Both the position numbers and the translations under genes were made by a program. The notes beneath the pieces were generated by a model, which did no database searches, was not told the origin of the DNA, and was given only the letters and a program-made list of their open reading frames with translations. Shown piece by piece: positions 1-34,615 of a stretch of DNA of 34,615 bases (its first letter is position 1; each line of letters begins with the position of its first letter). This stretch comes from a virus. The stretch lies in the IMG/VR virus record IMGVR_UViG_3300031418_000062; one strand, 5' to 3'.

Positions 1-127
1 TGATCTGCTGGTGTTGAGTCTACAAGGGAGGCTGTGGCCTCCCGTACCTTGTGCGCCGCGCTTGCGCGGGGCAGTCTGGTTCTATTCTCCAGGCTGAACA
101 ACGGCCGGCCGGCCTGAAGTGGCGCGC
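1..127. repeat. Terminal exact repeat, copy 1 (identical to 34489-34615); circular-assembly overlap
   Basis: The first 127 nt (tgatctgctggtgttgagtc...ggcctgaagtggcgcgc) are repeated base-for-base as the last 127 nt. A length of 127 is a common de Bruijn k-mer size. Confidence 0.95.
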
Positions 128-2422: not shown

Positions 2423-4200
2423 GAGTAGATCTCCATAATGCTGGTGTTGTTTGAGGTCGCGCCCTCGAGCGGTTCGTTGCCGAGCGCGTGCAGGGTGGCC
2501 CAGGCCAGGTCGGCGTGGCCGGTCTCCTGGCTATAGCCGGCGGTGTAGGTAATTTGGCGGCCGCTCGCCGTGACGGTTTTCTTGATCGACATGAAGGACT
2601 GCGCCATGTCCGTCCAGCCGGCATCGAATTCCAGGCGGCCGCCACGGACTACAGACAAGCCTTTGAGGACCAGGCGGCTTTTCACCTCGGGCGAGTAGTG
2701 CAGCCCTACCACGCTCGGATAGAACGTGCGCACCAGCTGGTAGACGCCCTGACCGATGCCGGTCTGGTCGATCGCCATGTAGGCGACGTTGTAGCGCTCA
2801 GTGATTTGTTTGATGCTGCGCGCCTGCGCTTCGAAGTCCATGCCGCGCCACTGGTGTTTCTCCAGTACGCGGAACTTGCCACCTGGGACCAATGGCGGTG
2901 CGACCACGACACAGCTGGCCTGGTCACCAGACATTGCCGGGTCGTAGCCGACCCAGACGGGGCGATGTCCGAATGGGCGCAGCGCGAACGGTTTCACGTC
3001 CTCCCACTCCACCCAGGAATCGACCATGCAGCGCTGCAGCTCGGCCAGCGGGAAAATGCTCTGGCTGTCGTCCACGAACTGGCACATGAGGAGGTTCGCG
3101 TACTCCTCGGGGCTGTATTCCCGGCGCAGCTCCTCCAGGTCGAACAGGTCGCAGCCGGAATTGGCTGCATCCTCGACCGTCACCATTTGCCGCCACTGGC
3201 CATCGGCGCACGCGCGGCCGGCCGCCAGGGCGGCGTGGCTTACGTCCAGCTGGATATGCTCGGCCTTCGCGCGGCCGCGGTTGGCGTGGTCGCCAGTCCA
3301 GAACGGATAGGCCTCATGCGACATGCTCGACGGCGTGGAAAAGTAGGTCTTGCGCCAATGCTTGTGCATGGCCATGCCCGAGGCGACCTTGTTCAGATTT
3401 TTGAAGCCTGGCACCCAGAAGTACTCGTCAAAGTAAAAATTGCCGTGGTAGCTCTGGGCGGTGCGCGCATTCGTGCTCAAGAAAATCAGCTCGGCCGCGT
3501 TCGGCAGCACGATGGTCTCGCCGGCCAGCTCGACGTCGGCCGCCTCGCGCGCGAACTGGCAGATGTATTGCCGGAACACGTTCGCCTGTGCCTTGCTGGC
3601 CGATAGGAAGATCTGGTTGCGGCCGGTCTCCAGCGCGTCGACGAAGGCCTCCCGCGAGAAATACCAGGTGGCGCCGATCTGGCGACTCTTGAGCAGGTTG
3701 CGCGTGCGCTGCTCGCCATTCCGGTACCAGACCTTCTGGTAGTTGAACAGCGAATCATGGAAGGCCTGCAGGATCCGGGCCTGCTGCTCCTCCGTGACGT
3801 TGTTGCGCTCGGGTTTCTTCTTCGGGCCGGCATTGCGCGCTTCGATGTTCGGGTTGAGGTCCTTTTCCTTCCCGGTCTCGCCGTACCTGCTGATCCGCGC
3901 CGTGCGCTCCAGCTGGCGGGTGAGCAGGTCGATTTCCTTGTAGTCCCCGCCGGTCTTGCCGTCCTTGGCAATGAGCAGGGATAGCCGCGCCTCGATCGAG
4001 GCGTCGACCCGCTCCACCGTGCCGGCCTTTTCCCATTCGTCGCGCTGCTTCCAGGATTCCACCGTGGCCCTGTTCAGGCCGAGCTCACGCGCAATGAACG
4101 ACACCCGCCACCCCTGGAAGTAGAGGAGGCGAGCGGCGCGGCGTGGGTCGATCTCAGTCTCGGCCGCGGTGGGGTCGGGGGTAGTGTTGATTTCAAGCAT
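2419..4200 (-). CDS. P: Terminase large (ATPase) subunit (P2 gpP family)
   Basis: About 593-605 aa, translationally coupled to Q (ATGA overlap at 2419-2422). Contains a KSRQIGATWYFSREAF P-loop-like block and a C-terminal nuclease-like region. The start is uncertain: ATG at 4200 or GTG at 4236. Confidence 0.93.
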   Translation of the reverse strand: MLEINTTPDPTAAETEIDPRRAARLLYFQGWRVSFIARELGLNRATVESWKQRDEWEKAGTVERVDASIEARLSLLIAKDGKTGGDYKEIDLLTRQLERTARISRYGETGKEKDLNPNIEARNAGPKKKPERNNVTEEQQARILQAFHDSLFNYQKVWYRNGEQRTRNLLKSRQIGATWYFSREAFVDALETGRNQIFLSASKAQANVFRQYICQFAREAADVELAGETIVLPNAAELIFLSTNARTAQSYHGNFYFDEYFWVPGFKNLNKVASGMAMHKHWRKTYFSTPSSMSHEAYPFWTGDHANRGRAKAEHIQLDVSHAALAAGRACADGQWRQMVTVEDAANSGCDLFDLEELRREYSPEEYANLLMCQFVDDSQSIFPLAELQRCMVDSWVEWEDVKPFALRPFGHRPVWVGYDPAMSGDQASCVVVAPPLVPGGKFRVLEKHQWRGMDFEAQARSIKQITERYNVAYMAIDQTGIGQGVYQLVRTFYPSVVGLHYSPEVKSRLVLKGLSVVRGGRLEFDAGWTDMAQSFMSIKKTVTASGRQITYTAGYSQETGHADLAWATLHALGNEPLEGATSNNTSIMEIYS

Positions 4201-4350: not shown

Positions 4351-5193
4351 ATGAGCACCGCAACCCACGCAAAAACGAAATGGTTCCGTGTCGCAGTCGA
4401 AGGCGCGACCACTGACGGCCGCAACATCGCCCGCGACTGGATCACCCAGATGGCGAAGAACTACAGCCCGACCGTGTACGGCGCCCGCGTCAACCTCGAG
4501 CACTACCGCGGCATCGATCCGGCCGGCCTGTTCAAGGCCTACGGCGACGTGCTGGCCCTGGAAGCGCGCGAGGAGTCGGGCGAGTTCGCCGGCAAGCTCG
4601 GCCTGTATGCCCAGATCCAGCCGACCGACGACCTGGTCACGCTGACCAAGAAAGGCCAGAAGATCTACACCTCGATCGAGGTCGACCCGTCGTTCTCGGA
4701 CACCAAGCAGGCCTACATGGTCGGCCTGGCCGTGACTGACAGCCCGGCCAGCCTCGGCACCTCCGTGCTGACCTTCGCCGCCCAGAACCCGGCAGCAAGC
4801 CCGTTCGCACACAAGAAACTGAACGCCAACACCCTGTTCACCGCGGCCGATGAGGCGGTGATCGAGTTCGAAGATCCGGCCGACCCGCCGGCGCCGTCCG
4901 TGTTCAAGCGCGTGGGCGAGCTGCTGGGCCTGTTCCGTAGCAAGGAACGCACCGACGACGCCCGCTTCGCGGACATGGGCCAGGCCGTCGAGGCCCTGGC
5001 AACCCACGGCGCCGAAACCGACAAGACGGTGCAGAAGCTGAGCGCCGACCTGGCCGGCGCGATCGCCGCGGCCGAGAAGGATCGCGCCGCTTTCACGGCC
5101 CTGAAAGAGCAGCTGTCGAAAGACCCGAACCCGGGCCAGCCGGCACGCCCTGCGGCCACTGGCGGCACCGGCGAGCTGGTCACCGACTGCTGA
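4351..5193 (+). CDS. O: Capsid scaffolding protein (P2 gpO family)
   Basis: 280 aa, first gene of the rightward head operon. The N-terminus KWFRVAVEGATTDGRNI...WI..MAKNY is typical of GPO scaffolds. Confidence 0.9.
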   Translation: MSTATHAKTKWFRVAVEGATTDGRNIARDWITQMAKNYSPTVYGARVNLEHYRGIDPAGLFKAYGDVLALEAREESGEFAGKLGLYAQIQPTDDLVTLTKKGQKIYTSIEVDPSFSDTKQAYMVGLAVTDSPASLGTSVLTFAAQNPAASPFAHKKLNANTLFTAADEAVIEFEDPADPPAPSVFKRVGELLGLFRSKERTDDARFADMGQAVEALATHGAETDKTVQKLSADLAGAIAAAEKDRAAFTALKEQLSKDPNPGQPARPAATGGTGELVTDC

Positions 5194-19439: not shown

Positions 19440-22400
19440 ATGTCGAACGATCTGAGATTACGAGTGCTGTTCAACCTGGCCGACAGCATCACCGGGCCCC
19501 TGCGCAATATCCGGCAAGGGAACGACGACGTCGCCAAGTCTTTGCGGGAAACTCGGAACCGCCTCAAGGAGCTGAACAAGACCCAGGCCGAGATCGGCGC
19601 GCTGCGCGAGCTGCGCACCGGCATGGCGGCCACGGCCGGCGAGCTGAACGCGGCCAAGACCCGGGTGGCGTCGCTCGCCCAGGCGCTCCACGCAAACGGC
19701 CCGCCAACCCAGGCAATGGTCCGGGACTTCGAACAGGCCCGGACGGCCGCGCGCGCGCTGCAGGACCAGCACCGCCAGCAATACGTCCAGCTGCATCAAC
19801 TCCGCACCGGCCTGGCCGGCGCCGGCATCGACACCCGCAACCTGTCCCAGCACGAGCGCGACCTGCGCCAGAACATCCAGGCCACCACGGCCGACATGCA
19901 ACGCCAGCAGCAACAGCTGGCCGAGCTGGCCGCGCGCGAGCGCCGCCTGGGCGAGGCCCGGGCGCGCATGCAGCGCACCCAGGAGACCGCCGGCAAGATG
20001 ACCAGCACCGGCGCGGGCATGGCTGCAGCCGGCGCCGTCACCACGGCCGCGCTGTCGGTCCCTGTGACCGAATACGCGAAGGCCGAGGACTCGGCCACCC
20101 AGCTGTCCGGCGCCCTGATGCGCGCCGGCGGCGTGGTCCCTCCCGAGTTCGAGAAAATCAACGCCCTGGCCATGAAGCTGGGCGATCGCCTGCCCGGCAC
20201 CACGTCGGACTTCCAGGACATGATGACGATGCTGACCCGCCAGGGCATCTCGGCGCAGACCATCCTGGGCGGCATGGGCGAGGCGGCCGCGTACCTGGGC
20301 GTGCAGCTGAAAAAGACGCCGGCAGAGGCGGCCGAGTTCGCGGCCAAGATGCAGGACGCGACCAAGACCACCGAAAAGGACATGCTCAGCCTGATGGACG
20401 TGATTCAGCGGACCTTCTACCTGGGCGTGGACGATAACAACATGCTCAACGGCATGGCCAAGCTCAGCCCGGCCATGGACACGATCAAGATGAAGGGCCT
20501 GGAAGGGGCCAAGGCCGTGGCGCCGCTGCTGGTGATGGCCGACCAGTCCGGCATGGCCGGCGAAGCCGCGGGCAACGCCTACCGGAAGATCTTCCAGATG
20601 GGCATGGACAAGAAGAAGATCGACAAGGCCAACAAGGGTCTGGCGCCGGCGCAGCGCCTGGACTTTACCGATGGAAAGGGCGAATTCGGCGGCTTTGACA
20701 AGATGTTCAAGCAGCTGGACAAGCTCAAGGGCCTGACCACGCAAAAGCGCCTGTCTGTCCTCAAGGAAGTTTTCGGGGATGATGCCGAAACGCTGCAAGT
20801 CGTCTCCCTGCTGATGGAGAAAGGCGTCGACGGCTACCGCGAGGTGCAGGGCAAGATGGCCGCCCAGGCCTCCCTGCAGGAGCGCGTCAACCAGCAGCTC
20901 GGCACCCTGAAAAACCTGTGGGAAGCTGCCGGCGGCACCTTCACCAACACCATGGTGGCCTTCGGTGAAACGCTCGCCCCCGAATTGAAGGCAACCACGG
21001 AATGGCTCGGAGACACGGCCCAGAAGATGGGCGCATGGGCGCGCGAGAACCCGCGTTTGTCTGGTGGCCTGATGAAAACCGTGGCCGCCCTCGGGATCCT
21101 GCTCACCGTCGGCGGCGCGCTGCTGGTGATGCTCGGGACCGTCCTCGGCCCCCTGGCAATGCTCAAGTTCAGCCTGACCACCCTCGGCATGCAGGGCGGC
21201 CTCATGGCGAACGTGTTCCGGATGGCCATATCACCGCTCAAGCTGCTGGGCCAGGCCGTGCTATTCATCGGCCGCGCCATGCTGATGAACCCCATCGGCC
21301 TGGCAATCACCGGGATCGCCGTCGCCGCCTTCCTGATCTACAAGTACTGGGGCCCCATCAAGGAATTCTTTGGCGGTCTGTGGGACCAGGTGAAAGCCGC
21401 GTTCAACGGCGGCATCGGCGCGATCGGCGCCCTGCTGGTGAACTGGTCGCCAGCCGGGCTGTTCTACCGAGCCTTCGCCGGCGTGATGTCCTATTTCGGC
21501 ATCGACATGCCTTCCAAGCTGTCGCAGTTCGGCGCGAACATCATCACCAGCCTGGCCACCAGCCTGGCCCCGATCGGCGCCTTTGTCGGCGGATTGTGGG
21601 ACCAGATAAAGACGGCTTTCAACGGGGGCATCGGCTCGATCGGCGCCCTCCTGGCTAACTGGTCCCCGGTCGGGCTGTTCTACCAGGCCTTCGCCGCGGT
21701 GATGTCCTATTTCGGGATCGACCTGCCGGCCAAGTTCTCGACCTTCGGGGCGAACATCATCGCCGGCCTGGTCAACGGCATCACCGGCGGCCTGGGATCC
21801 GTCCAGACCGCAATCACGGCGGCCGCCGACAGCACGGTGGCCTGGTTCAAGGAAAAACTGGGAATCAAGAGCCCGAGCCGGGTGTTTGGCGAGCTGGGCG
21901 GCTTCATCAGCCAAGGCGCCGCTGTCGGGATCGAAGGCGAGCAGGGAAAGGTAGCCAAGGCGATCGCGGCCCTGGCAACGGTCGCCTCGGCCACGTTCAC
22001 GCCTGCTGTCACTGTTGCCGCCCAGCTGCCCACGACGCCGCCGGCGCAGCTGCAGCCGGTGGTGGCCGCGGCCAAGTCGCCGGCAGCGGCACCGGCACCG
22101 GCCCAGCTGCAGCCGGTGGTGGCCGTGGCGAAGTCGCCGGCAGCAGCGCCGGCACCGACCCAGCTGCAGCCAATGGCGGCCGCGGCCAAGTCGCCGGCAG
22201 CGGCACCGGCACCGGCCCAGCTGCAGCCAATGGCGGCCGCGGCCAAGTCGCCGGCAGCGGCGGCGGCGCCGGCCCAGCTGCAGCCGGTGGTGGCCGTGGC
22301 GAAGTCGCCGGCAGCGGCGGCGGCGCCGGCCCAGCTGCAGCCAGTGGCGGCCGCGGCGAAGTCGCCGGCAGCGGCGGCGCCGCCGGCCCAGCTGCAGCCG

Positions 22401-22925
22401 GTGGTGGCCGTGGCGAAGTCGCCGGCAGCGGCACCGGCACCGACCCAGCTGCAGCCAATGGCGGCCGCGGCCAAGTCGCCGGCAGCGGCGGCGGCGCCGG
22501 CCCAGCTGCAGCCGGTGGTGGCCGTGGCGAAGTCGCCGGCGGCGGCGGCGCCGGCCCAGCTGCAGCCGGTGGTGGCCGTGGCGAAGTCGCCGGCGGCGGC
22601 GGCGGCGCCGGCCCAGCTGCAGCCAGTGGCGGCCGCGGCGAAGTCGCCGGCAGCGGCGGCGCAGCCGGTGACGGCCGCGGCCAAGGCGTCGATCGTCAAC
22701 CCGGTCCCGATCGACACGCGCGCATCCGTGCTCACGCCGAAGGCCGGCGCAGGATCCGCAGCTGGCGGCGCCGGCGCTGCAGGTGGCGGGAATAACACGT
22801 ACACCATCAACATCAACCCCGCTCCAGGGATGGACCCGGCCGCGATCGCGCGCGCCGTGGCCGCTGAACTGGACCGCCGCGAGCGCGCGAAGCAGTCGCG
22901 CATCGGCTCGCGCCTGACCGATTGA
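19440..22925 (+). CDS. T: Tail tape measure protein (P2 gpT family) with an internal 72-aa duplication and an 11-copy 19-aa tandem repeat
   Basis: 1161 aa. It has a helical N-terminus, hydrophobic central segments and sits between E/E' and U. Confidence 0.92.
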   Translation: MSNDLRLRVLFNLADSITGPLRNIRQGNDDVAKSLRETRNRLKELNKTQAEIGALRELRTGMAATAGELNAAKTRVASLAQALHANGPPTQAMVRDFEQARTAARALQDQHRQQYVQLHQLRTGLAGAGIDTRNLSQHERDLRQNIQATTADMQRQQQQLAELAARERRLGEARARMQRTQETAGKMTSTGAGMAAAGAVTTAALSVPVTEYAKAEDSATQLSGALMRAGGVVPPEFEKINALAMKLGDRLPGTTSDFQDMMTMLTRQGISAQTILGGMGEAAAYLGVQLKKTPAEAAEFAAKMQDATKTTEKDMLSLMDVIQRTFYLGVDDNNMLNGMAKLSPAMDTIKMKGLEGAKAVAPLLVMADQSGMAGEAAGNAYRKIFQMGMDKKKIDKANKGLAPAQRLDFTDGKGEFGGFDKMFKQLDKLKGLTTQKRLSVLKEVFGDDAETLQVVSLLMEKGVDGYREVQGKMAAQASLQERVNQQLGTLKNLWEAAGGTFTNTMVAFGETLAPELKATTEWLGDTAQKMGAWARENPRLSGGLMKTVAALGILLTVGGALLVMLGTVLGPLAMLKFSLTTLGMQGGLMANVFRMAISPLKLLGQAVLFIGRAMLMNPIGLAITGIAVAAFLIYKYWGPIKEFFGGLWDQVKAAFNGGIGAIGALLVNWSPAGLFYRAFAGVMSYFGIDMPSKLSQFGANIITSLATSLAPIGAFVGGLWDQIKTAFNGGIGSIGALLANWSPVGLFYQAFAAVMSYFGIDLPAKFSTFGANIIAGLVNGITGGLGSVQTAITAAADSTVAWFKEKLGIKSPSRVFGELGGFISQGAAVGIEGEQGKVAKAIAALATVASATFTPAVTVAAQLPTTPPAQLQPVVAAAKSPAAAPAPAQLQPVVAVAKSPAAAPAPTQLQPMAAAAKSPAAAPAPAQLQPMAAAAKSPAAAAAPAQLQPVVAVAKSPAAAAAPAQLQPVAAAAKSPAAAAPPAQLQPVVAVAKSPAAAPAPTQLQPMAAAAKSPAAAAAPAQLQPVVAVAKSPAAAAPAQLQPVVAVAKSPAAAAAPAQLQPVAAAAKSPAAAAQPVTAAAKASIVNPVPIDTRASVLTPKAGAGSAAGGAGAAGGGNNTYTININPAPGMDPAAIARAVAAELDRRERAKQSRIGSRLTD
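22041..22664 (+). repeat. In-frame tandem repeat, 11 copies of 57 nt (one copy 54 nt), encoding PAQLQPVVAVAKSPAAAAA-type units inside the tape measure gene
   Basis: Units start at 22041, 22098 and so on, with period 57. The copies differ by a few substitutions (V/M, A/P). Confidence 0.95.
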
Positions 22926-22935
22926 GGAAGTTTCC

Positions 22936-23346
22936 ATGCTGCTATCACTGGATCAATTCACCTTTGGCATGGACACCCTGCCCTGGCAAGAGCTGCAGCG
23001 GCAAACGCAGTGGAAACACCGCAGCAGCTCGCGCGTGGGCGCCCGGGATGCGCGCCAGTACCTCGGCCCGGGCGAGGACGTGGTGACCATCAACGGCGTC
23101 CTGGTCCCCGAGATCACCGGGGATGCGGTGTACCTGGAGGATCTGCGCGCAATGGCCGACGCCGGGGATGCCTATGTCCTGGTCGACGCGACCGGCAACG
23201 TGTACGGCGCTTTCGTGATCGAGTACGTGAACGAGACCCAGAACGGCCACAAGAAGGACGGCACGCCACGGCGGATCGACTTCACGGTTGGCCTGTCCCG
23301 GGTTGACGAAAGCCTGGCGGCCGAGCAGCTGGCGAGCGAGGAATAA
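22936..23346 (+). CDS. U: Tail protein U (P2 gpU family)
   Basis: 136 aa, located between T and D. LLSLDQFTFGMDTLPWQELQR is a gpU-like N-terminus. Confidence 0.88.
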   Translation: MLLSLDQFTFGMDTLPWQELQRQTQWKHRSSSRVGARDARQYLGPGEDVVTINGVLVPEITGDAVYLEDLRAMADAGDAYVLVDATGNVYGAFVIEYVNETQNGHKKDGTPRRIDFTVGLSRVDESLAAEQLASEE

Positions 23347-25075: not shown

Positions 25076-25527
25076 AAACCGTTCTTATGATGCCGCGCCG
25101 CTTCGGCCGGACCGCGATCGCGCGCGCGCTGCGCGCCACCGGCGACGACCAGCTGACGCCCGAGCAGTACCGGGCGCTGTTTCAAGGCGAATTCTCGATC
25201 GAGGCCAAGGACCGCGAACTGGTGGCCCTGGCCGAGGAGTACGACCGCCGCACCGAGCTATACGACCGCACGGTCTGCACCGGCCCGATCGGACCGGATG
25301 GGATCATGCCGGCGACGCCGGCCGAGCTCGCGGCGATCAACAGGCACGCCGACCAGGTGCGGCGCGAGCTGGTCGACCGCGCGATGCGCGCCGGCTTCAC
25401 CGCGGCGCAGTTCAAGGAAGCGATGATGCACCAGGTGCGGCAAGGCCCCGCGGCCGTGGCCGCGCAGGCGGCGCGCCAGGATCGCCCCCCGACCTGGATC
25501 GGGATGGACTTCGGGAAGGAGGCGTAA
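25072..25527 (+). CDS. Hypothetical protein (151 aa)
   Basis: Translationally coupled at both ends (ATGA at 25072, TAATG at 25525-25529) with high GC3. No recognisable motif. Confidence 0.55.
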   Translation: MKTVLMMPRRFGRTAIARALRATGDDQLTPEQYRALFQGEFSIEAKDRELVALAEEYDRRTELYDRTVCTGPIGPDGIMPATPAELAAINRHADQVRRELVDRAMRAGFTAAQFKEAMMHQVRQGPAAVAAQAARQDRPPTWIGMDFGKEA

Positions 25528-26171
25528 TGCGACACCCGACCGCCACCAACAACCTGGACATCATCACCGGAGGCCTGCTGATCGGCTACGCCCGGGTGTC
25601 CACGGTCGACCAGAACCTGGACCTGCAGCGGGACGCCCTGCAGCGCGCCGGGTGCGGCCAGATCTATGAGGACAAGGCCAGCGGCCGCGCGAAGTCGGGC
25701 CGGCCCGAGCTGGCGGCCGTGCTGCGCGCGCTGCGCGCCGGCGACACCCTGGTGGTCTGGCGCCTGGACCGCCTGGCGCGATCGCTGGTCGACCTGGTGC
25801 AGATCATCAACGAGCTGGGAGAAAAGGGGATTGGCTTCAAGAGCCTGACGGAACAGATCGACACCTCGAGCGTGCAAGGCCGGTTGTTCCTGGGCGTGTT
25901 CGCAGCCATGGCGCAGTATCAGCGCGACGTCATCCACGAAAACACGATGGAGGGATTGAAGGCAGCTCGAGCACGCGGTCGCATGGGCGGCCGGCGGTCG
26001 AAGCTGGGAGAACAGGAGATCCGGGAGATCGAGGCGCTGTTGAAGGATCCGCAGATCACCGTGGTGGACGTGGCCAAGCGCTACGGGGTGAGCCGGGCCA
26101 CCATTTACAACGCCCTGGGGAAGAAACAGCCTACCGCACAGCTCGCACTACCGAGTGGCAATAGCCAATGA
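25527..26171 (+). CDS. Small serine recombinase (resolvase/invertase family)
   Basis: IGYARVSTVDQNLDLQRDAL (catalytic Ser motif), LVVWRLDRLARS and a C-terminal HTH (VAKRYGVSRATIYNAL). At 214 aa it is the size of a Tn3/Hin-class enzyme, not a large serine integrase. Confidence 0.93.
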   Translation: MRHPTATNNLDIITGGLLIGYARVSTVDQNLDLQRDALQRAGCGQIYEDKASGRAKSGRPELAAVLRALRAGDTLVVWRLDRLARSLVDLVQIINELGEKGIGFKSLTEQIDTSSVQGRLFLGVFAAMAQYQRDVIHENTMEGLKAARARGRMGGRRSKLGEQEIREIEALLKDPQITVVDVAKRYGVSRATIYNALGKKQPTAQLALPSGNSQ

Positions 26172-26778
26172 TCTGCAGCCGGTCCCGATCGGCGGCCGGC
26201 ACAACCTCCGCGACATAGCCCGGGCTATCGCACGACATACGCAGCGATCCATCCACCATGTGCTGGATCCTGCGGAAATAAGCATGGGTATCATCGAAGC
26301 GCACCAGGTAAAGCCCATCTGCAGACTGCTGAGCGCAATTCACCAGGACCACGTGCCCTTCGGGTAGCGTGTCCGCCATAGCATCCCCCACCACCCGCAC
26401 GGCGATAACGTCACCAGCTTCCAGTCGCTCCTGGTCAAGCCATTGCCGCGGCACGTACCAGGATTGTTCCTCGAACGCCTTCGGCCAGTCCATCGCATCC
26501 AATAATGGCACCTCGACCATGTGGGCCGGGATCGGGGCCGGCGCCGCGCCGCCGGCTTCCTTTGTGCCCCTTCCCAGAATCAGCCAGTCCAGGCTGATAT
26601 TCCGATCGAGCGCAAAAATGACGCATTCGTCATAGGGGATTGAGCCCCGATTCTTTAGCACGCTGATAAAGCCGCGCGACCCACCAAGCACCTCGGATAA
26701 CTCTTTGTCTAATTGGATGCCAAGCACAGTTTTCATTCTGTCGATTATGTCTGTTACGGATGGCTTATTTTGTTCCAT
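26131..26778 (-). CDS. cI: CI-like immunity repressor: N-terminal HTH plus a degenerate S24 (LexA/CI/UmuD-type) C-terminal domain
   Basis: The N-terminus LGIQLDKELSEVLGGSRGFISVLKNRGSIP is HTH-like. The C-terminus aligns with the S24 fold but reads GDAM instead of G(D/N/M)SM, and AYFRRI instead of FTVKKL. The 3' end overlaps the recombinase gene by 41 nt. Confidence 0.85.
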   Translation of the reverse strand: MEQNKPSVTDIIDRMKTVLGIQLDKELSEVLGGSRGFISVLKNRGSIPYDECVIFALDRNISLDWLILGRGTKEAGGAAPAPIPAHMVEVPLLDAMDWPKAFEEQSWYVPRQWLDQERLEAGDVIAVRVVGDAMADTLPEGHVVLVNCAQQSADGLYLVRFDDTHAYFRRIQHMVDGSLRMSCDSPGYVAEVVPAADRDRLQIIGYCHSVVRAVR

Positions 26779-27156
26779 TTTTGAGCTTTACATTGCAAAA
26801 GGTTGTCCGAAGTTGCTGCGCGGAACCGGAGTAGAGCGTACAATTTACGGAGCGCAATGTTGGCTTACAAAATGTTACTTTTATTGTAATCACGCATTGC
26901 AAATTGTAGTTCTGACATCCACTTTCTTGCCATTTGTCACTGAGAAACACTGTACGGATATACAGTATTATTGAGCCTTACACAGTGATCGCGGTTGGCT
27001 GTTGAGAGTGGGAAACGACGCCGGTGCGCGAGGGGATTATCTACCGAACAGCATCTATCGCCTATGAAAAAGGCGTAACGGCATAGCAATAATGCCGCAA
27101 AGCAATAAAAGGAACGGTTTGGACTTGTCCGCCAGGGATCGCCAGGAATTACACAA
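26779..27156. promoter_or_regulatory. Immunity switch region (divergent promoters/operators), AT-rich relative to the genome
   Basis: 378 nt with no credible ORF. CATTGCAAA repeats at 26791 and 26895, with an inverted cattgcg at 26853-26859. Also the inverted repeat TTACAA/TTGTAA (26865-26889), cactgt/acagtg (26948/26982) and the LexA box. Confidence 0.6.
26950..26965. promoter_or_regulatory. LexA (SOS) box CTGT-N8-ACAG in the cI/ogr switch region
   Basis: cACTGTacggatatACAGTa matches 16 of 20 positions of the E. coli-type consensus TACTGTATATATATACAGTA, with both CTGT and ACAG arms perfect. Confidence 0.65.
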
Positions 27157-27414
27157 ATGAGCCTGAGAATTACAATCTGTTGCCCACATTGCGAATCGAA
27201 AGCAAACGCGCGCACCAGCAAGGCGCTTTCCGCTACCTTGAGGGAAATAGTTTACGTTTGTGTAGACCCTGAGTGCGGACATACCTACGTTGCGCAGCTT
27301 GAGGTGGTTCGTACTCTTTCGCCGTCGGCAAAACCTAAAAAAGACATCCGGCTCCCGATTTCGCCACACGTAATGGCGATGTTGAGAGAACAGCTGGAGT
27401 TATTACCCGCGTGA
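27157..27414 (+). CDS. ogr: Ogr/Delta-family zinc-finger late-gene activator
   Basis: CPHCESKANARTSKALS...REIVYVCVDPECGHTY has the CxxC...RTS...C....C pattern and spacing of P2 Ogr / P4 Delta. Confidence 0.85.
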   Translation: MSLRITICCPHCESKANARTSKALSATLREIVYVCVDPECGHTYVAQLEVVRTLSPSAKPKKDIRLPISPHVMAMLREQLELLPA

Positions 27415-27764
27415 TCGAAGAGAAACCTATGCACAAAGCCATGCAACCTAATCCGCTTTACACCCTTGCAATCGAATTTCTGCAGCAACACCAGGACGAG
27501 CATCTGACACCGGATCGCCCCCGCCTCATCGCCCGTTGCGCTTATCACCTGATCGACCGCGCGACGGCCAGCCTGGACGAAGCCACGGACGTGGCCCGGC
27601 AAGCCTTTGGCGAGCTGACGGCCGGCACCTGCCGCTCCTATATCAACCTTGACCTCACCACGAGTTACGCCCTCTTCATCAACGGCCCGGACGGCAAGAA
27701 GCGCTGCTACCCGCTGCCGGAAGTGCTGCGCGTGATTCGCCAGGCTGCGGCCGGCGCCCTGTAA
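27411..27764 (+). CDS. Hypothetical early protein (111-117 aa)
   Basis: ORF coupled to ogr (GTGA overlap; alternative ATG at 27429). No recognisable motif. Confidence 0.55.
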   Translation: MIEEKPMHKAMQPNPLYTLAIEFLQQHQDEHLTPDRPRLIARCAYHLIDRATASLDEATDVARQAFGELTAGTCRSYINLDLTTSYALFINGPDGKKRCYPLPEVLRVIRQAAAGAL

Positions 27765-27846: not shown

Positions 27847-30624
27847 ATGGCTAATATTGACGAAGTAAAACGGATCGTAAACCCTCGGCTGCATGACCTG
27901 GCCTCCAGGCTCGGCATCAAGCAGGGAAAGGGTGGCGACGATGCGCTGTATCACTCGCCGCACCACCCCGACAAGAATCCCTCCCTGTCGATCTACATCG
28001 ACCATCCCAAGCACGGCACCGGCTGGAAGGACCACAGCGGCGACGCCGGCGGCTCCTGCATCGACATGGTGATGTTCACCCAGGGCTGCAGCGCCTCCGA
28101 TGCCCTGAAATACCTGCACCAGGAATACGCGATCCCCTTCGACACTCCGGATAAGCCGGCCCAGGAAAACAAGAGCATGGTCGAGTACATTGCCGACCGC
28201 TGCATCGCCGCCCGCGAGAAGGTGCGGGACTACCTGCAGGGCCGCGCGATCGGCGCCGGCGCGATCGATGCCGCGCTGCGCGCCAAGACCCTGGGATTCA
28301 ACGAATGGACCAGCCCGAAGAAACAACCAGGTGAGGTGGGCTATGGCGGCCCGGCTGCGGCCTTCATCGTGCGCTCGCCCGACACCAGCCAAGTGGTGGC
28401 CGTCGACATGCGCTTCCTGGATCCGGCCCAGAATGGCGACGTCAAGACGCAGGCCCAGGGCGAGAAGGACGGCTACTACTGGACCGCCGACCCCCGCAAG
28501 CTCGAGCGCGCCCAGCGCGTGTACGTGGTCGAAAGCCCGATCAACGCCCTGTCGATCGACACCTGCAGCATCCCCAAGACTGCAGCGATCGCCCTCCGCG
28601 GCCTCAGCAACGCGTCGACCATCGACCTGGCCTTCCTGCAGGGCAAACAGGTGGTGATCTGCATGGACAACGACGAGCCCTTCCCGGACGGCCACCAGCG
28701 CGCCGGCCAGCGTCCCGGCCCAGAGGCCGCCTGGATCCTGTACGAGCGCCTGACCGCCATCAACATCAGCGCAGTCCTGGTCGACCAGGAGGAGTGGGAC
28801 AAGGTTGAAGGCGACGAGAACGGCGGCAAGCCGATCAACGACGTGAACGACTACCTGCAGGCGCGCGGCGCGCAGAAGCTGGCCAAGGCCCTGGACACCT
28901 ACGAGACCTGGCTGATCGCCGGCATGGCCGGCAACGTCTCGCGCAAGGGCCGGGCGCGCGTCTACCTGCCAGCACACGATTACGCCCAATACTGGAAATT
29001 CCGGCCGCACCTGGACTTCACCAAGTACATCGCCAGGATGGACGAAAACAAGGAAACCGGCGACGAGACCCCGATCTACCACGACCTGTGCGGTTTCCGG
29101 GTCGCATCCCTGAGCCGGGTATCGGTCGCCAGCTCGACCGCCACCATGACCGGCGATCGGGACCACTCCCCTACCGTGTACTTTTCCGTGACGGTCCAAG
29201 TTCCCCGCCACGGCCCCGAGCTGGTCCGCAAGGTCCTGATGGACGACCAGCTGCACAACACGAACACCTGGACGAAGTTCGGCCCGATCTGGAAGCCGGC
29301 CGAATTCTCGCGCATGGTGAGCATCCTCGAGCGCACCGCGGATCTCGGCGCACGCAAGGCCGCCAACTTCGTGGGCCTGGCCTGGCTCGACGGCCGCCTG
29401 GCTGTCAACGAGGGGCCGGACTGCTATTTCACCGAAGCCGAGAAGCAATGCACGTATCACAACCTGACGTTCCCTTCCGGGCCGACCGCGAACGCGCGCA
29501 GGGTCATCAAAGCGTATCAGGCCACCTACACCAGCAACGCCGGCGCGATCCCCCTGGTCTGGGCACTCGGCGGCCACCTCAAGGCCTTCCTGGGATTCTG
29601 GCCACACATCACGATGCAGGCCGACAAGGGCGCCGGCAAGTCCACCCTGGTGAAGCGCCTCGAGCGCTCCCTGGCCTTCACCATGTTCTCGGGCCAGAGC
29701 CTGCAGACGGAATTCCGCCTGATGACCAGCATCAGCTACACCAGCCATCCGGTTGGCTGGGAGGAGCTGAGCGCCCGCCGCACCGACGTGATCGACAAGG
29801 CCGTGGCGATCCTGCAGGAGTCGTATCAGTACACCACTACCAAGCGCGGCTCCGAAATGACCGAGTTCCTGCTGTGCGCGCCGGTGATGCTGGCCGGCGA
29901 GGACGTGCCCGTTAAGAGCCTCACCGGCAAGGTGGTCCGGACGGATCTGACCAACAAGGCCAACGGCTTCATGGCCGACGACCTGCCCCACTTCCCAGTG
30001 CGCCAGTGGCTGGAATTCCTGACCAAGCTCGACAAGGCCACCGTGCTGGAGAAGTACGCCGGGCTGCGCGAGTACTGCCTGAAAAACAGCCGCGCCGGCG
30101 GCGACGACAGCGGCGCCAGGCGCATGGCCGGCAACTACGCGGCCGTGCTGCTGGCCTGGGGACTCCTGGCCGAGTTCGCCGGCATGGACTATTCCGAAGG
30201 TGCATTCGGCAAGGACCTCCTGGCCGAGATGAACGCCCATATTTCGGAGACCAGCAGCGACCGCTCGCCGTGGGTCTGGATCATGGAAACGGCGCTGTCC
30301 GAGATCGACGCCAGCAACTTCAAGCACCCGTACAAGTTCGAAGTGGTGGACGGCAAGGATTGCCTGCTGGTGCGGCCGCAGCACATCATGGACCACCTGT
30401 CGAGCTCCTCGAGCCTGCGCGAGAAGTGGAATTCTCTGCCGGTCAAGACCGCTGCAGTGTTCAAGCGTCAGATGATGTCGGCCGGGATCCTGTTGCTGGA
30501 CGAAGCCGGGAAGCCCAAGGAACTGGAGCGGACCATTTTGATGCGCCGCGTTGGCCACCTCTCCGCGATCCCGCTCGAGGCCTTGAACAACTTCGGCCTG
30601 TCGGTCGGCTGGCGGAACGAGTAG
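27847..30624 (+). CDS. Bifunctional primase-helicase-like replication protein (degenerate zinc-finger region, toprim domain, P-loop NTPase)
   Basis: 925 aa. Toprim motifs VYVVESPINALS and VVICMDNDEP, and Walker A ADKGAGKST. The overall layout resembles P4 alpha / DUF927-type phage-plasmid primase-helicases. Confidence 0.85.
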   Translation: MANIDEVKRIVNPRLHDLASRLGIKQGKGGDDALYHSPHHPDKNPSLSIYIDHPKHGTGWKDHSGDAGGSCIDMVMFTQGCSASDALKYLHQEYAIPFDTPDKPAQENKSMVEYIADRCIAAREKVRDYLQGRAIGAGAIDAALRAKTLGFNEWTSPKKQPGEVGYGGPAAAFIVRSPDTSQVVAVDMRFLDPAQNGDVKTQAQGEKDGYYWTADPRKLERAQRVYVVESPINALSIDTCSIPKTAAIALRGLSNASTIDLAFLQGKQVVICMDNDEPFPDGHQRAGQRPGPEAAWILYERLTAINISAVLVDQEEWDKVEGDENGGKPINDVNDYLQARGAQKLAKALDTYETWLIAGMAGNVSRKGRARVYLPAHDYAQYWKFRPHLDFTKYIARMDENKETGDETPIYHDLCGFRVASLSRVSVASSTATMTGDRDHSPTVYFSVTVQVPRHGPELVRKVLMDDQLHNTNTWTKFGPIWKPAEFSRMVSILERTADLGARKAANFVGLAWLDGRLAVNEGPDCYFTEAEKQCTYHNLTFPSGPTANARRVIKAYQATYTSNAGAIPLVWALGGHLKAFLGFWPHITMQADKGAGKSTLVKRLERSLAFTMFSGQSLQTEFRLMTSISYTSHPVGWEELSARRTDVIDKAVAILQESYQYTTTKRGSEMTEFLLCAPVMLAGEDVPVKSLTGKVVRTDLTNKANGFMADDLPHFPVRQWLEFLTKLDKATVLEKYAGLREYCLKNSRAGGDDSGARRMAGNYAAVLLAWGLLAEFAGMDYSEGAFGKDLLAEMNAHISETSSDRSPWVWIMETALSEIDASNFKHPYKFEVVDGKDCLLVRPQHIMDHLSSSSSLREKWNSLPVKTAAVFKRQMMSAGILLLDEAGKPKELERTILMRRVGHLSAIPLEALNNFGLSVGWRNE

Positions 30625-30910: not shown

Positions 30911-31216
30911 TTACCTGTTCGCCTCGCGTTCCTCGGCCGCGATGAAGCGCGAGACCGCCAGCGCGAACGCTGCCGCACGGCTGAGGCCAAGCGCGGCGGC
31001 CTTGTTGTCCAGTGCCGCCAGGATATGCGCGTCGATCGTCAAGCTGATCGGCTTCTTTCTGCCGCCTTTCGGAATCAACGCCGGCGCCGGCGTCGACGTC
31101 GCACTCGGCTTAGCGTCCGGCGCGGCGCCGATGAGGGCCGCGACCTGATCTTCGGTTACGCCTGGCTTGAGCCCTGCCGGATTGCTACCTGGGCGGGGCA
31201 AGATTTTCGATACCAT
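30911..31216 (-). CDS. parG: Ribbon-helix-helix (ParG/CopG-like) partition adaptor / centromere-binding protein
   Basis: 101 aa immediately downstream of ParA. It has a disordered Pro/Ala-rich N-terminus and then KPISLTIDAHILAALDNKAAALGLSRAAAFALAVSRFI, an RHH pattern. Confidence 0.65.
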   Translation of the reverse strand: MVSKILPRPGSNPAGLKPGVTEDQVAALIGAAPDAKPSATSTPAPALIPKGGRKKPISLTIDAHILAALDNKAAALGLSRAAAFALAVSRFIAAEEREANR

Positions 31217-31250
31217 TTCTATATTCCTTTAATATCAACCTGATGTTGTG
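31217..31250. promoter_or_regulatory. TTCTATATTC + TAATATCAAC box between parA and parG
   Basis: ttctatattcctttaatatcaacctgatgttg parallels ttctatattcagttgatatcaacttactgtag upstream of parA. Confidence 0.5.
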
Positions 31251-31256
31251 TTGAGA

Positions 31257-31916
31257 CTACTTTGACCTGTCCGCGAATGCGCGAATGTCCTCGAGCAGGT
31301 TGTACATTTCGTTGCGGGCGTCCGGTGGTGCGCCCTTGAATTCGCTGATATGACGGCCGGCCGCGCTGGCATGGGAGAACGCCTTGCGATCGCCCAGCCT
31401 GCATTTGCTGATCTCAAAACCAAACTGAGACACATATTCAATCGACGCCTCGTTGTCGGCCTCTTGACCAGCTGGATCCGCCTTGTTCAGGAAAGCCAAC
31501 ACCTTGAAGTCTTTCACCTGCTGCATTTCCCGGGCCAGATTCACTGTATTTTCGAATGCCCACACATCGAACGAGCGTGGAGCAAACGGAAACACCATCA
31601 CGTCACACAGCGACAACGCGGCCCGCATCGCGCCTGAATCCTTTGCCCCCACGTCGATAACCACGTCATCGAAGTTCCCCGCCTGCAGGAGCACCTGGGC
31701 ACGCATGGACGGGCCATCCGTCAGCGGCACCGATGGGATCCCAGGCAAATCCGCCAGGATCCGGGCGGTAAGGGCCAGGTGCATGGAGGTCTGTTCATCG
31801 TCCCCATCGACCGCCCAAACCCTACGCCCGGCCAGGGACAAGCCGGTCACCAGTTGCACCGAGGTGGTGGACTTGCCAACGCCGCCCTTTTTATTCGCTA
31901 CTGCATAGATTGTCAT
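31257..31916 (-). CDS. parA: ParA-family partition ATPase (small, type Ib-like, no N-terminal HTH)
   Basis: The deviant Walker A AVANKKGGVGKSTT is at the extreme N-terminus. VWAVDGDDEQTS is also present. 219 aa. Confidence 0.9.
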   Translation of the reverse strand: MTIYAVANKKGGVGKSTTSVQLVTGLSLAGRRVWAVDGDDEQTSMHLALTARILADLPGIPSVPLTDGPSMRAQVLLQAGNFDDVVIDVGAKDSGAMRAALSLCDVMVFPFAPRSFDVWAFENTVNLAREMQQVKDFKVLAFLNKADPAGQEADNEASIEYVSQFGFEISKCRLGDRKAFSHASAAGRHISEFKGAPPDARNEMYNLLEDIRAFADRSK

Positions 31917-34488: not shown

Positions 34489-34615
34489 TGATCTGCTGGT
34501 GTTGAGTCTACAAGGGAGGCTGTGGCCTCCCGTACCTTGTGCGCCGCGCTTGCGCGGGGCAGTCTGGTTCTATTCTCCAGGCTGAACAACGGCCGGCCGG
34601 CCTGAAGTGGCGCGC
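34489..34615. repeat. Terminal exact repeat, copy 2 (identical to 1-127)
   Basis: Same comparison as for copy 1. Confidence 0.95.

Follow-up and report, generated by a model that had tools for sequence, protein, structure and literature searches.

Phage 186 CI is the classic non-cleaving repressor, and repressors of the 186 CI type assemble through their C-terminal domain into a higher-order oligomer, a wheel of dimers. In CTXphi, RstR and host LexA act at PrstA. A locus that resembles that of 186, and in its proposed circuit that of CTXphi, is found in the IMG/VR virus record IMGVR_UViG_3300031418_000062, a stretch of 34,615 nucleotides (nt) that was analysed whole and is called the window here. 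The immunity repressor encoded in the window has kept the fold of the S24 peptidases and has lost its catalytic residues, and a putative LexA operator (SOS box) lies between the repressor gene and the early lytic genes.

In the closest described systems, the signal of DNA damage reaches the phage by different routes. Phage 186 is induced by the antirepressor Tum, which is expressed from the LexA-repressed promoter p95, and not by cleavage of CI (PMC7708051). In the Gifsy phages and in N15, LexA-controlled antirepressors inactivate non-cleavable repressors (PMC3121763). Bacillus phage GIL01 relies on host LexA, together with gp7, on its lytic promoter to transmit the SOS signal (PMC4551915). 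Burkholderia phage KS14, whose gene order the window matches, is a P2-like phage of the Peduoviridae that has been shown to persist as a plasmid (PMC3091744). The KS14 lysogen was reported not to be sensitised to ciprofloxacin, unlike a KS5 lysogen (PMC12780198).

The repressor is composed of an N-terminal helix-turn-helix (HTH) domain of the 186 CI type and a C-terminal domain that Pfam recognises as Peptidase_S24 (Table 1). Its gene lies where a P2-type phage has its immunity repressor, next to the early lytic promoter, as seen from synteny with KS14 and from the −10 element of that promoter, P_R. In public gene calls the protein begins at Met15 and has 201 amino acids. Met1 is the better start because conservation in the family extends over the first 14 residues and because the Pfam domain already starts at residue 10. 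A search of the PDB with the single sequence gave a weak match to 186 CI, and a family profile, built from 51 homologues, was needed. The N-terminal domain of 186 CI scored 36 bits against this profile and the C-terminal domain a weak 11.5 bits. An AlphaFold2 model of the repressor reached a mean predicted local distance difference test score of 88.6. Its best match in Foldseek was 186 CI (2fjr, E 7e-9), and the C-terminal domain of 186 CI (2fkd) was matched with a template modelling (TM) score of 0.80; LexA, lambda CI and UmuD' followed, with target-normalised TM scores of 0.7-0.8. An earlier sequence-only reading of this DNA had proposed that the S24 fold is kept, and both the Pfam match and the predicted structure bear this out.

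The same reading had aligned the domain by eye and concluded that the nucleophile Ser and the general-base Lys are replaced by Ala and Arg. Two independent profile alignments place the two columns as it had proposed. Against UmuD', the family GDaM falls on GDSM (Ser60) and rfkRvQ on FTVKKLQ (Lys97). With hhalign, VRVVGDAMAD of the window protein falls on LRVSGMSMKD of Escherichia coli LexA, which pairs A133 with S119, and AYFRRIQ falls on VTVKRLK, which pairs R169 with K156; the LexA sequence was checked at A84-G85, S119 and K156. In the profile alignment, 186 CI itself has Gly in the Ser column and Arg in the Lys column. The sole Lys of the C-terminal domain, K100, is unconserved, so no alternative Ser/Lys dyad is hidden elsewhere in the domain.

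The loss of the dyad is accompanied by the loss of the cleavage site. Among 80 distinct homologues gathered from IMG/VR and GTDB loci, all 33 canonical ones possess a six-residue [AS]-A-G segment 41-42 residues ahead of the Ser (pattern [AS]-A-G-x-G, as in QAAAGNGRLF) and keep both Ser and Lys; an Alkalilimnicola homologue, with AAAG, GDSM and the Lys, is an example. The segment is deleted in the other 47, a pattern that includes the window protein, where the junction falls at Asp97-Trp98. An Ala-Gly dipeptide in the linker, which the sequence-only reading had pointed out, is indeed present at residues 75-76. It is not the cleavage site; the true segment is deleted. The dipeptide lies 57 residues before position 133, and self-cleaving repressors have Ala/Cys-Gly about 35-41 residues before the Ser. 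It is also replaced by IG, GG, VG, EG or SG in close relatives and lies where the confidence of the model is low. With the segment deleted, Ser changed to Ala and Lys changed to Arg, self-cleavage of the repressor is very unlikely on sequence grounds, as had been predicted.

The 47 homologues that lack the segment form one clade in a neighbour-joining tree and come from Burkholderiales. Within this clade, the Ser column holds A, P, T, G, N, C, V or S and the Lys column holds R, K or A; both Ser and Lys are still present in three members. The Ala/Arg pair, whose conservation the sequence-only reading had wished to see surveyed, is not fixed, and what the clade has in common is the deletion. Judging from the alignment and the tree, the loss of cleavage is ancient and common to the whole Burkholderiales branch of the family, and the likely order of loss is the cleavage segment first, followed by free drift of the dyad on a fold that was retained. 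The window repressor looks like an intermediate between the canonical S24 repressors and the 186 type because it still scores as Peptidase_S24 in Pfam and because the C-terminal domain of 186 CI matches the family profile weakly. In such a protein, the S24-fold domain probably serves oligomerisation only.

Several relatives in the set (P0006, P0009, P0044, P0071 and P0072) are publicly named "LexA family transcriptional regulator" or "SOS-response transcriptional repressor LexA". The misnamed members carry the 186-CI-type HTH, and many are without the catalytic residues. Caution is needed with such annotations, as these proteins cannot work like LexA.

The second feature of the locus is the SOS box, CTGTACGGATATACAG, which lies 172 nt from the ATG of the repressor gene and 192 nt from the ATG of ogr, the first gene of the early operon. 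It has 16 of 20 matches, counted by eye, to the extended consensus of E. coli, and the window has no other CTGT-N8-ACAG, even if one mismatch is tolerated. At least one box occurred in 27 of 100 shuffled sequences; a lone box in the window is therefore within chance. Conservation of the box is another matter. Counting the window, eight loci have repressors of 61% identity or more, and each has the box at 186-197 nt from the start codon of the repressor gene; five more loci, with repressors 51-58% identical, have it at 181-186 nt. In these 13 of 13 subclade loci the arms CTGT and ACAG are invariant, and much of the intergenic region diverges. The box is thus conserved beyond chance. A sister locus with a repressor 50% identical (L243) has no box at the equivalent site, and most of the 47 non-cleaving relatives have none upstream of the repressor gene. 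These data support the box as a real conserved element and the obvious entry point for a DNA-damage signal, and we infer that it is bound by LexA. The sequence-only reading had noticed a LexA box near the repressor gene, and this part of it has been strengthened by the comparison.

A hexamer that resembles a −10 element follows the box directly. It reads TATTAT in the window and TATTAT, TAAAAT or TAGAAT across the subclade, where T1, A2, A5 and T6 are fixed in all 13 loci and positions 3-4 vary. This is the pattern of a plus-strand −10. The mirror position of the box on the minus strand is not −10-like. Upstream, a weak −35 can be drawn, and the box would fill the spacer between the two. There is no conserved small open reading frame (ORF) between the box and ogr, and Rfam gave no match in 26600-27400. 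A small RNA or riboswitch in the 180-nt leader was considered and dropped; RNAalifold gave weak hairpins with little covariation.

Other sites with sequence related to the box were recorded. Near-matches with up to one mismatch are rare in the window, with one site against 8.9 +/- 3.1 expected from dinucleotide-preserving shuffles (recounted). This may reflect avoidance of stray LexA sites or an effect of codon usage. When metagenomes were scanned with the box sequence, most matches were unrelated SOS boxes, and the only two loci of this kind were already in the set; a scan of viral contigs with the P_R block added one match (L236), which was a chance and unrelated one. In five loci of a clade that keeps its ribbon-helix-helix (RHH) gene (L012, L013, L014, L016 and L085), a perfect palindrome that resembles an SOS box, AAAAAGTACTGTATGGGTATACAGTACTTTTT, lies 3' of the repressor gene, 133-154 nt past its stop (e.g. 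L016 4275-4305), and has an A-run on one side and a T-run on the other. A recombinase gene runs towards it in L012 and L014. In L086, a CTGT-N8-ACAG that lacks such flanks lies 72 nt past the repressor stop, and L243 has a box at +811 from the repressor start. The palindrome downstream of the repressor could serve as a LexA site, as a two-way terminator or in both roles.

In every clade, a lytic-strand −10 lies about 60 nt from the start of the repressor gene, as TACAAT in the window and TAGAAT or TATAAT elsewhere, and marks the ancestral early promoter P_R. In all other non-cleaving relatives examined, P_R is followed by a divergent small gene for an RHH protein and then by ogr at 350-395 nt; in KS14 this RHH gene is the cro-like gp4, described as "Arc-like". 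Where the box is present, the distance to ogr is similar (roughly 375-390 nt) and a conserved RHH ORF is absent. What is left in the window is a 3' relic that would encode "GIIYR..AY". The relic has no start codon, and stops interrupt it in most members of the subclade. Relative to L011, the nearest RHH-bearing outgroup and the one used for nucleotide alignment, nucleotide identity is 71% in the P_R region, 34% at the position of the 5' two-thirds of the RHH gene, where the box lies (the 150 nt before the relic), and 65% over the relic (27031-27095). A hidden Markov model of 49 RHH proteins found nothing significant in six-frame translations of the intergenic regions (best E 0.4), so the relic rests on its position and on nucleotide identity to outgroups. 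From this comparison, the box-bearing subclade has evidently lost the cro-like gene and gained a putative LexA operator at the same spot. In L242, an ORF of 53 codons runs across the SOS box, and its N-terminal part is unrelated to RHH proteins.

The predicted repressor promoter, Pc, is the best conserved minus-strand site of the sigma-70 type and is found in eight of eight aligned loci. Its −10 and that of P_R overlap on opposite strands (26839-26847), so binding of polymerase to the two may be mutually exclusive. Direct and inverted repeats in the intergenic region of the window are mostly unconserved in relatives, and no operator was therefore assigned to them.

Table 1. Features of the immunity locus and its surroundings in the window.
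Feature	Coordinates	Strand	Remarks
Serine recombinase (invertase type)	25527..26171	+	Converges on repressor gene
Immunity repressor, 215 amino acids	26131..26778	−	186-CI-type HTH and non-catalytic S24-fold domain
Peptidase_S24 domain (PF00717), residues 105-205	26164..26466	−	Pfam E 2e-10
Codon Arg169	26272..26274	−	General-base Lys column in UmuD' and LexA alignments
Codon Ala133	26380..26382	−	Nucleophile Ser column in UmuD' and LexA alignments
Codons Asp97-Trp98	26485..26490	−	Junction where canonical relatives have the cleavage segment (homologue alignment)
Codons Ala75-Gly76	26551..26556	−	Variable linker; not the homologous cleavage site
N-terminal HTH, Phage_CI_repr (PF07022), residues 10-72	26563..26751	−	Pfam E 1.6e-13
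−10 TACAAT of ancestral early lytic promoter P_R	26839..26844	+	Conserved across clades
Predicted repressor promoter Pc	26842..26870	−	−35 TTGTAA 26865-26870, 17-nt spacer, −10 TAAATT 26842-26847
Weak −35 GAAACA	26944-26949	+	Box fills 16-nt spacer to TATTAT
SOS (LexA) box CTGTACGGATATACAG	26950..26965	palindromic	Extended palindrome 26948-26967
−10-like hexamer TATTAT	26966..26971	+	Directly after box; TAnnAT in 13/13 loci
RHH gene 3' relic	27031..27095	+	Reads GIIYRTASIAYEKG; no intact ORF
Ogr/Delta-type zinc-finger late-gene activator	27157..27414	+	PF04606 E 2e-19; first gene after box
orf117 (phrog_3461)	27411..27764	+	Second gene after box; positional equivalent of KS14 gp3
Primase/replication protein, 925 amino acids, Toprim domain	27847..30624	+	
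Small RHH protein, 101 amino acids, ParG-like	30911-31216	−	Follows ParA-type ATPase gene
ParA-type ATPase	31257-31916	−	Partition module, 30911..31916, typical of plasmid prophage

On balance, the locus is probably governed by a non-cleaving repressor of the 186 type, with an SOS input regained through host LexA at a second early promoter. The repressor HTH would bind operators at P_R, and RecA could not remove the repressor from them. LexA would hold a second rightward promoter, with TATTAT as its −10, about 125 nt downstream of P_R and inside the decayed RHH gene. Either promoter would read into ogr, orf117 and the primase gene, which would make the arrangement an OR gate. The operon would be on if the repressor is absent, as at infection, or if LexA is cleaved during the SOS response with the repressor intact. 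DNA damage would then lead to LexA cleavage, and the late-gene activator and replication would be turned on with the repressor still in place. More tentatively, LexA could have become the second arm of the switch after the loss of the cro-like gene, and induction would be a bypass in which SOS starts the lytic genes with the repressor intact and bound.

Several points weigh against this reading. The −35 of the proposed box promoter is poor, and a generic scan for promoters and terminators called nothing at the box. As the box is palindromic, the direction of transcription follows from the flanking −10 alone, and in some members a leftward arrangement like that of 186 p95, with TACTGT as the −10, can be drawn. 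This leftward promoter was ranked low because its −35 is not conserved in five added loci. The repressor may act on the box promoter as well. We also infer that expression of ogr and the primase is sufficient to start lytic growth with the repressor on P_R. The host LexA site is assumed to be CTGT-N8-ACAG, as in Beta- and Gammaproteobacteria in general, and a non-canonical LexA motif is reported for some Betaproteobacteria.

The main alternative is an antirepressor among the downstream products, as the sequence-only reading had also proposed. In a circuit like that of 186, the LexA-controlled rightward transcript would encode an inactivator of the repressor, and P_R would be derepressed. This is just how 186 works, and the repressor belongs to the 186 type; the candidates would be the Ogr-like protein and orf117, which has no known function and is the second gene after the box. 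No homologue of 186 Tum or Apl was found in the window by tblastn, however (all E >0.5; Tum E >1). Homologues of orf117 occupy the same place in relatives without the box (KS14 gp3 and L016), so the gene is not confined to the subclade with the SOS link, and Ogr belongs to a well-characterised family of late activators. An antirepressor is therefore considered unlikely. We regard it as quite unlikely that the box controls something else, either a leftward promoter to the repressor gene, by which SOS would raise immunity, or P_R itself, as a roadblock or fine-tuner that biases lysis-lysogeny at infection. The position of the box would suit such roles, as it is about equidistant from the two start codons and about 100 nt downstream of the P_R start, and its right arm, read on the minus strand, is TACTGT, as in the −10 of 186 p95. 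Ciprofloxacin has been found to cause "biasing" in KS14 without sensitisation of the lysogen (PMC12780198). KS14, where the biasing is seen, has no box, and a rise of immunity under SOS has no obvious benefit. The candidate minus-strand −35 is also unconserved over the 13 loci, whereas the plus-strand TAnnAT is conserved.

The prophage may instead not be SOS-inducible, like P2 and apparently KS14, with the box neutral or vestigial. Chance can account for a single CTGT-N8-ACAG in 34.6 kb, and most non-cleaving relatives manage without one. We hold this to be improbable, given that position and sequence of the box are kept in every subclade locus, between repressors diverged to 50% identity and in a poorly conserved intergenic region. 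Least probable, to the point of being remote, is that the repressor is still proteolysed through a cryptic active site, through trans-cleavage by an active S24 protein, or by another protease. Intermolecular cleavage is known for UmuD, and Ala75-Gly76 could be taken for a target. That dipeptide is unconserved even in close relatives, the Ser and Lys columns hold Ala and Arg, no Lys of the domain is conserved, and no gene for an ImmA/IrrE-type protease adjoins the repressor gene. Trans-cleavage, one of the induction routes suggested by the sequence-only reading, is made unlikely by the deletion of the segment that would be cut.

The sequence-only reading had treated the dead S24 domain and the SOS box as one rewired circuit. 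The two do not appear to be coupled, as the loss of cleavage is old and is found in 47 relatives, KS14 among them, most of them without an upstream box, and the box came later, in one subclade, together with the decay of the RHH gene. Loss of cleavage alone appears to leave these phages blind to SOS, as KS14 appears to be. The whole KS14 genome (32.3 kb) contains no SOS box, and this, with a lysogen that is not sensitised to ciprofloxacin, fits an SOS-blind, non-cleaving repressor.

In KS14, an unannotated ORF for an Ogr/Delta-type zinc-finger protein lies between gp3 and gp4 on the minus strand, at about 3540-3800 (L003/L109, NC_015273). It is 64% identical to the Ogr of the window (E 3e-33), and no Ogr homologue is listed in the original paper on KS14.

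The first and last 127 nt of the window (1-127 and 34489-34615) are identical. Given this terminal repeat, the DNA is a closed circle of about 34.5 kb (about 34,488 bp) and thus a whole phage genome and no fragment. It contains P2-type portal, terminase and tail genes, a serine recombinase in place of a tyrosine integrase, and a ParA partition gene. The 3' ends of the repressor and serine recombinase genes overlap by 41 nt (26131-26171), and KS14 has an identical 41-nt overlap at 4809-4849. The combination of ParA with a ParG-like RHH protein, the recombinase and the lack of a tyrosine integrase suggests that, like KS14, the phage is maintained as a plasmid prophage; such maintenance was demonstrated for KS14 alone. 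The nearest genome-derived relatives belong to Oxalobacteraceae, led by an uncultured metagenome-assembled genome at 78% identity and followed by Massilia, Duganella and Pseudoduganella. Relatives in Massilia and Duganella often fill their own contigs of 34-35 kb. A tblastn search of PLSDB plasmids gave no close relative of the window. From its gene content and relatives, the window is read as the complete genome of a KS14-like, P2-type plasmid prophage of Oxalobacteraceae, a small, plasmid-like phage of soil bacteria. The G+C content is 76.5% at 22001-23000, inside an ORF of 1161 amino acids (19440-22925), compared to about 65% elsewhere.

The family offers an unusually clean natural series from a self-cleaving repressor to a non-cleaving one of the 186 type. 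SOS sensing also appears to have been regained later and independently in this family, when a host LexA operator was captured at the cost of a cro-like gene. If the bypass holds true, induction would occur without inactivation of the repressor, which bears on predicting how prophages respond to SOS-inducing antibiotics. This is of practical importance for the KS14-type Burkholderia phages that are under study for phage-antibiotic therapy.

Compared to LexA, lambda CI and UmuD, the window repressor has the same C-terminal fold and recognisable sequence homology, but it is without the nucleophile, the general base and the cleavage segment and has another type of N-terminal domain. The KS14 repressor, gp5, is a homologue (35% identity) with the segment deleted and Lys changed to Arg, and both genomes have the serine recombinase, the repressor, the early operon (ogr, a gp3-like gene and primase) and the ParA module. 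KS14 differs in keeping the Ser (GNSM) and the cro-like RHH gene gp4 and in lacking an SOS box. GIL01 and CTXphi resemble the proposed circuit in that cleavage of LexA, and not of a phage repressor, would carry the SOS signal. Neither phage is related to the window, and nor are their repressors; a CI-like repressor is absent from GIL01, and in the window LexA would gate a separate tandem promoter without co-repression. The Gifsy phages and N15 share with the window a non-cleavable repressor and, in the proposed circuit, induction via a LexA-repressed phage locus; their small antirepressors are encoded away from the immunity region, whereas none is evident in the window.

Phage 186 is the direct precedent. 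Both are P2-type phages whose repressor joins a PF07022 HTH to a C-terminal domain of S24 fold that lacks the Ser/Lys dyad, and in the reading favoured here the SOS signal would reach both through a phage LexA operator and not through cleavage of the repressor. The two differ in layout. In the window, the box lies between the repressor and the early genes, the early operon starts with ogr, and Pc and P_R stand back to back, whereas 186 has its box at the other end of the genome, an early operon that begins with apl-cII, and promoters that stand face to face. A homologue of Tum was not found in the window. A non-cleaving S24-fold repressor with LexA-dependent induction is the established design of 186, and the window holds a variant of it and no new principle. 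New are the absence of any recognisable antirepressor, the stepwise decay of self-cleavage across one family and the later appearance, within the early leader, of a putative LexA operator that took the place of the cro-like gene.

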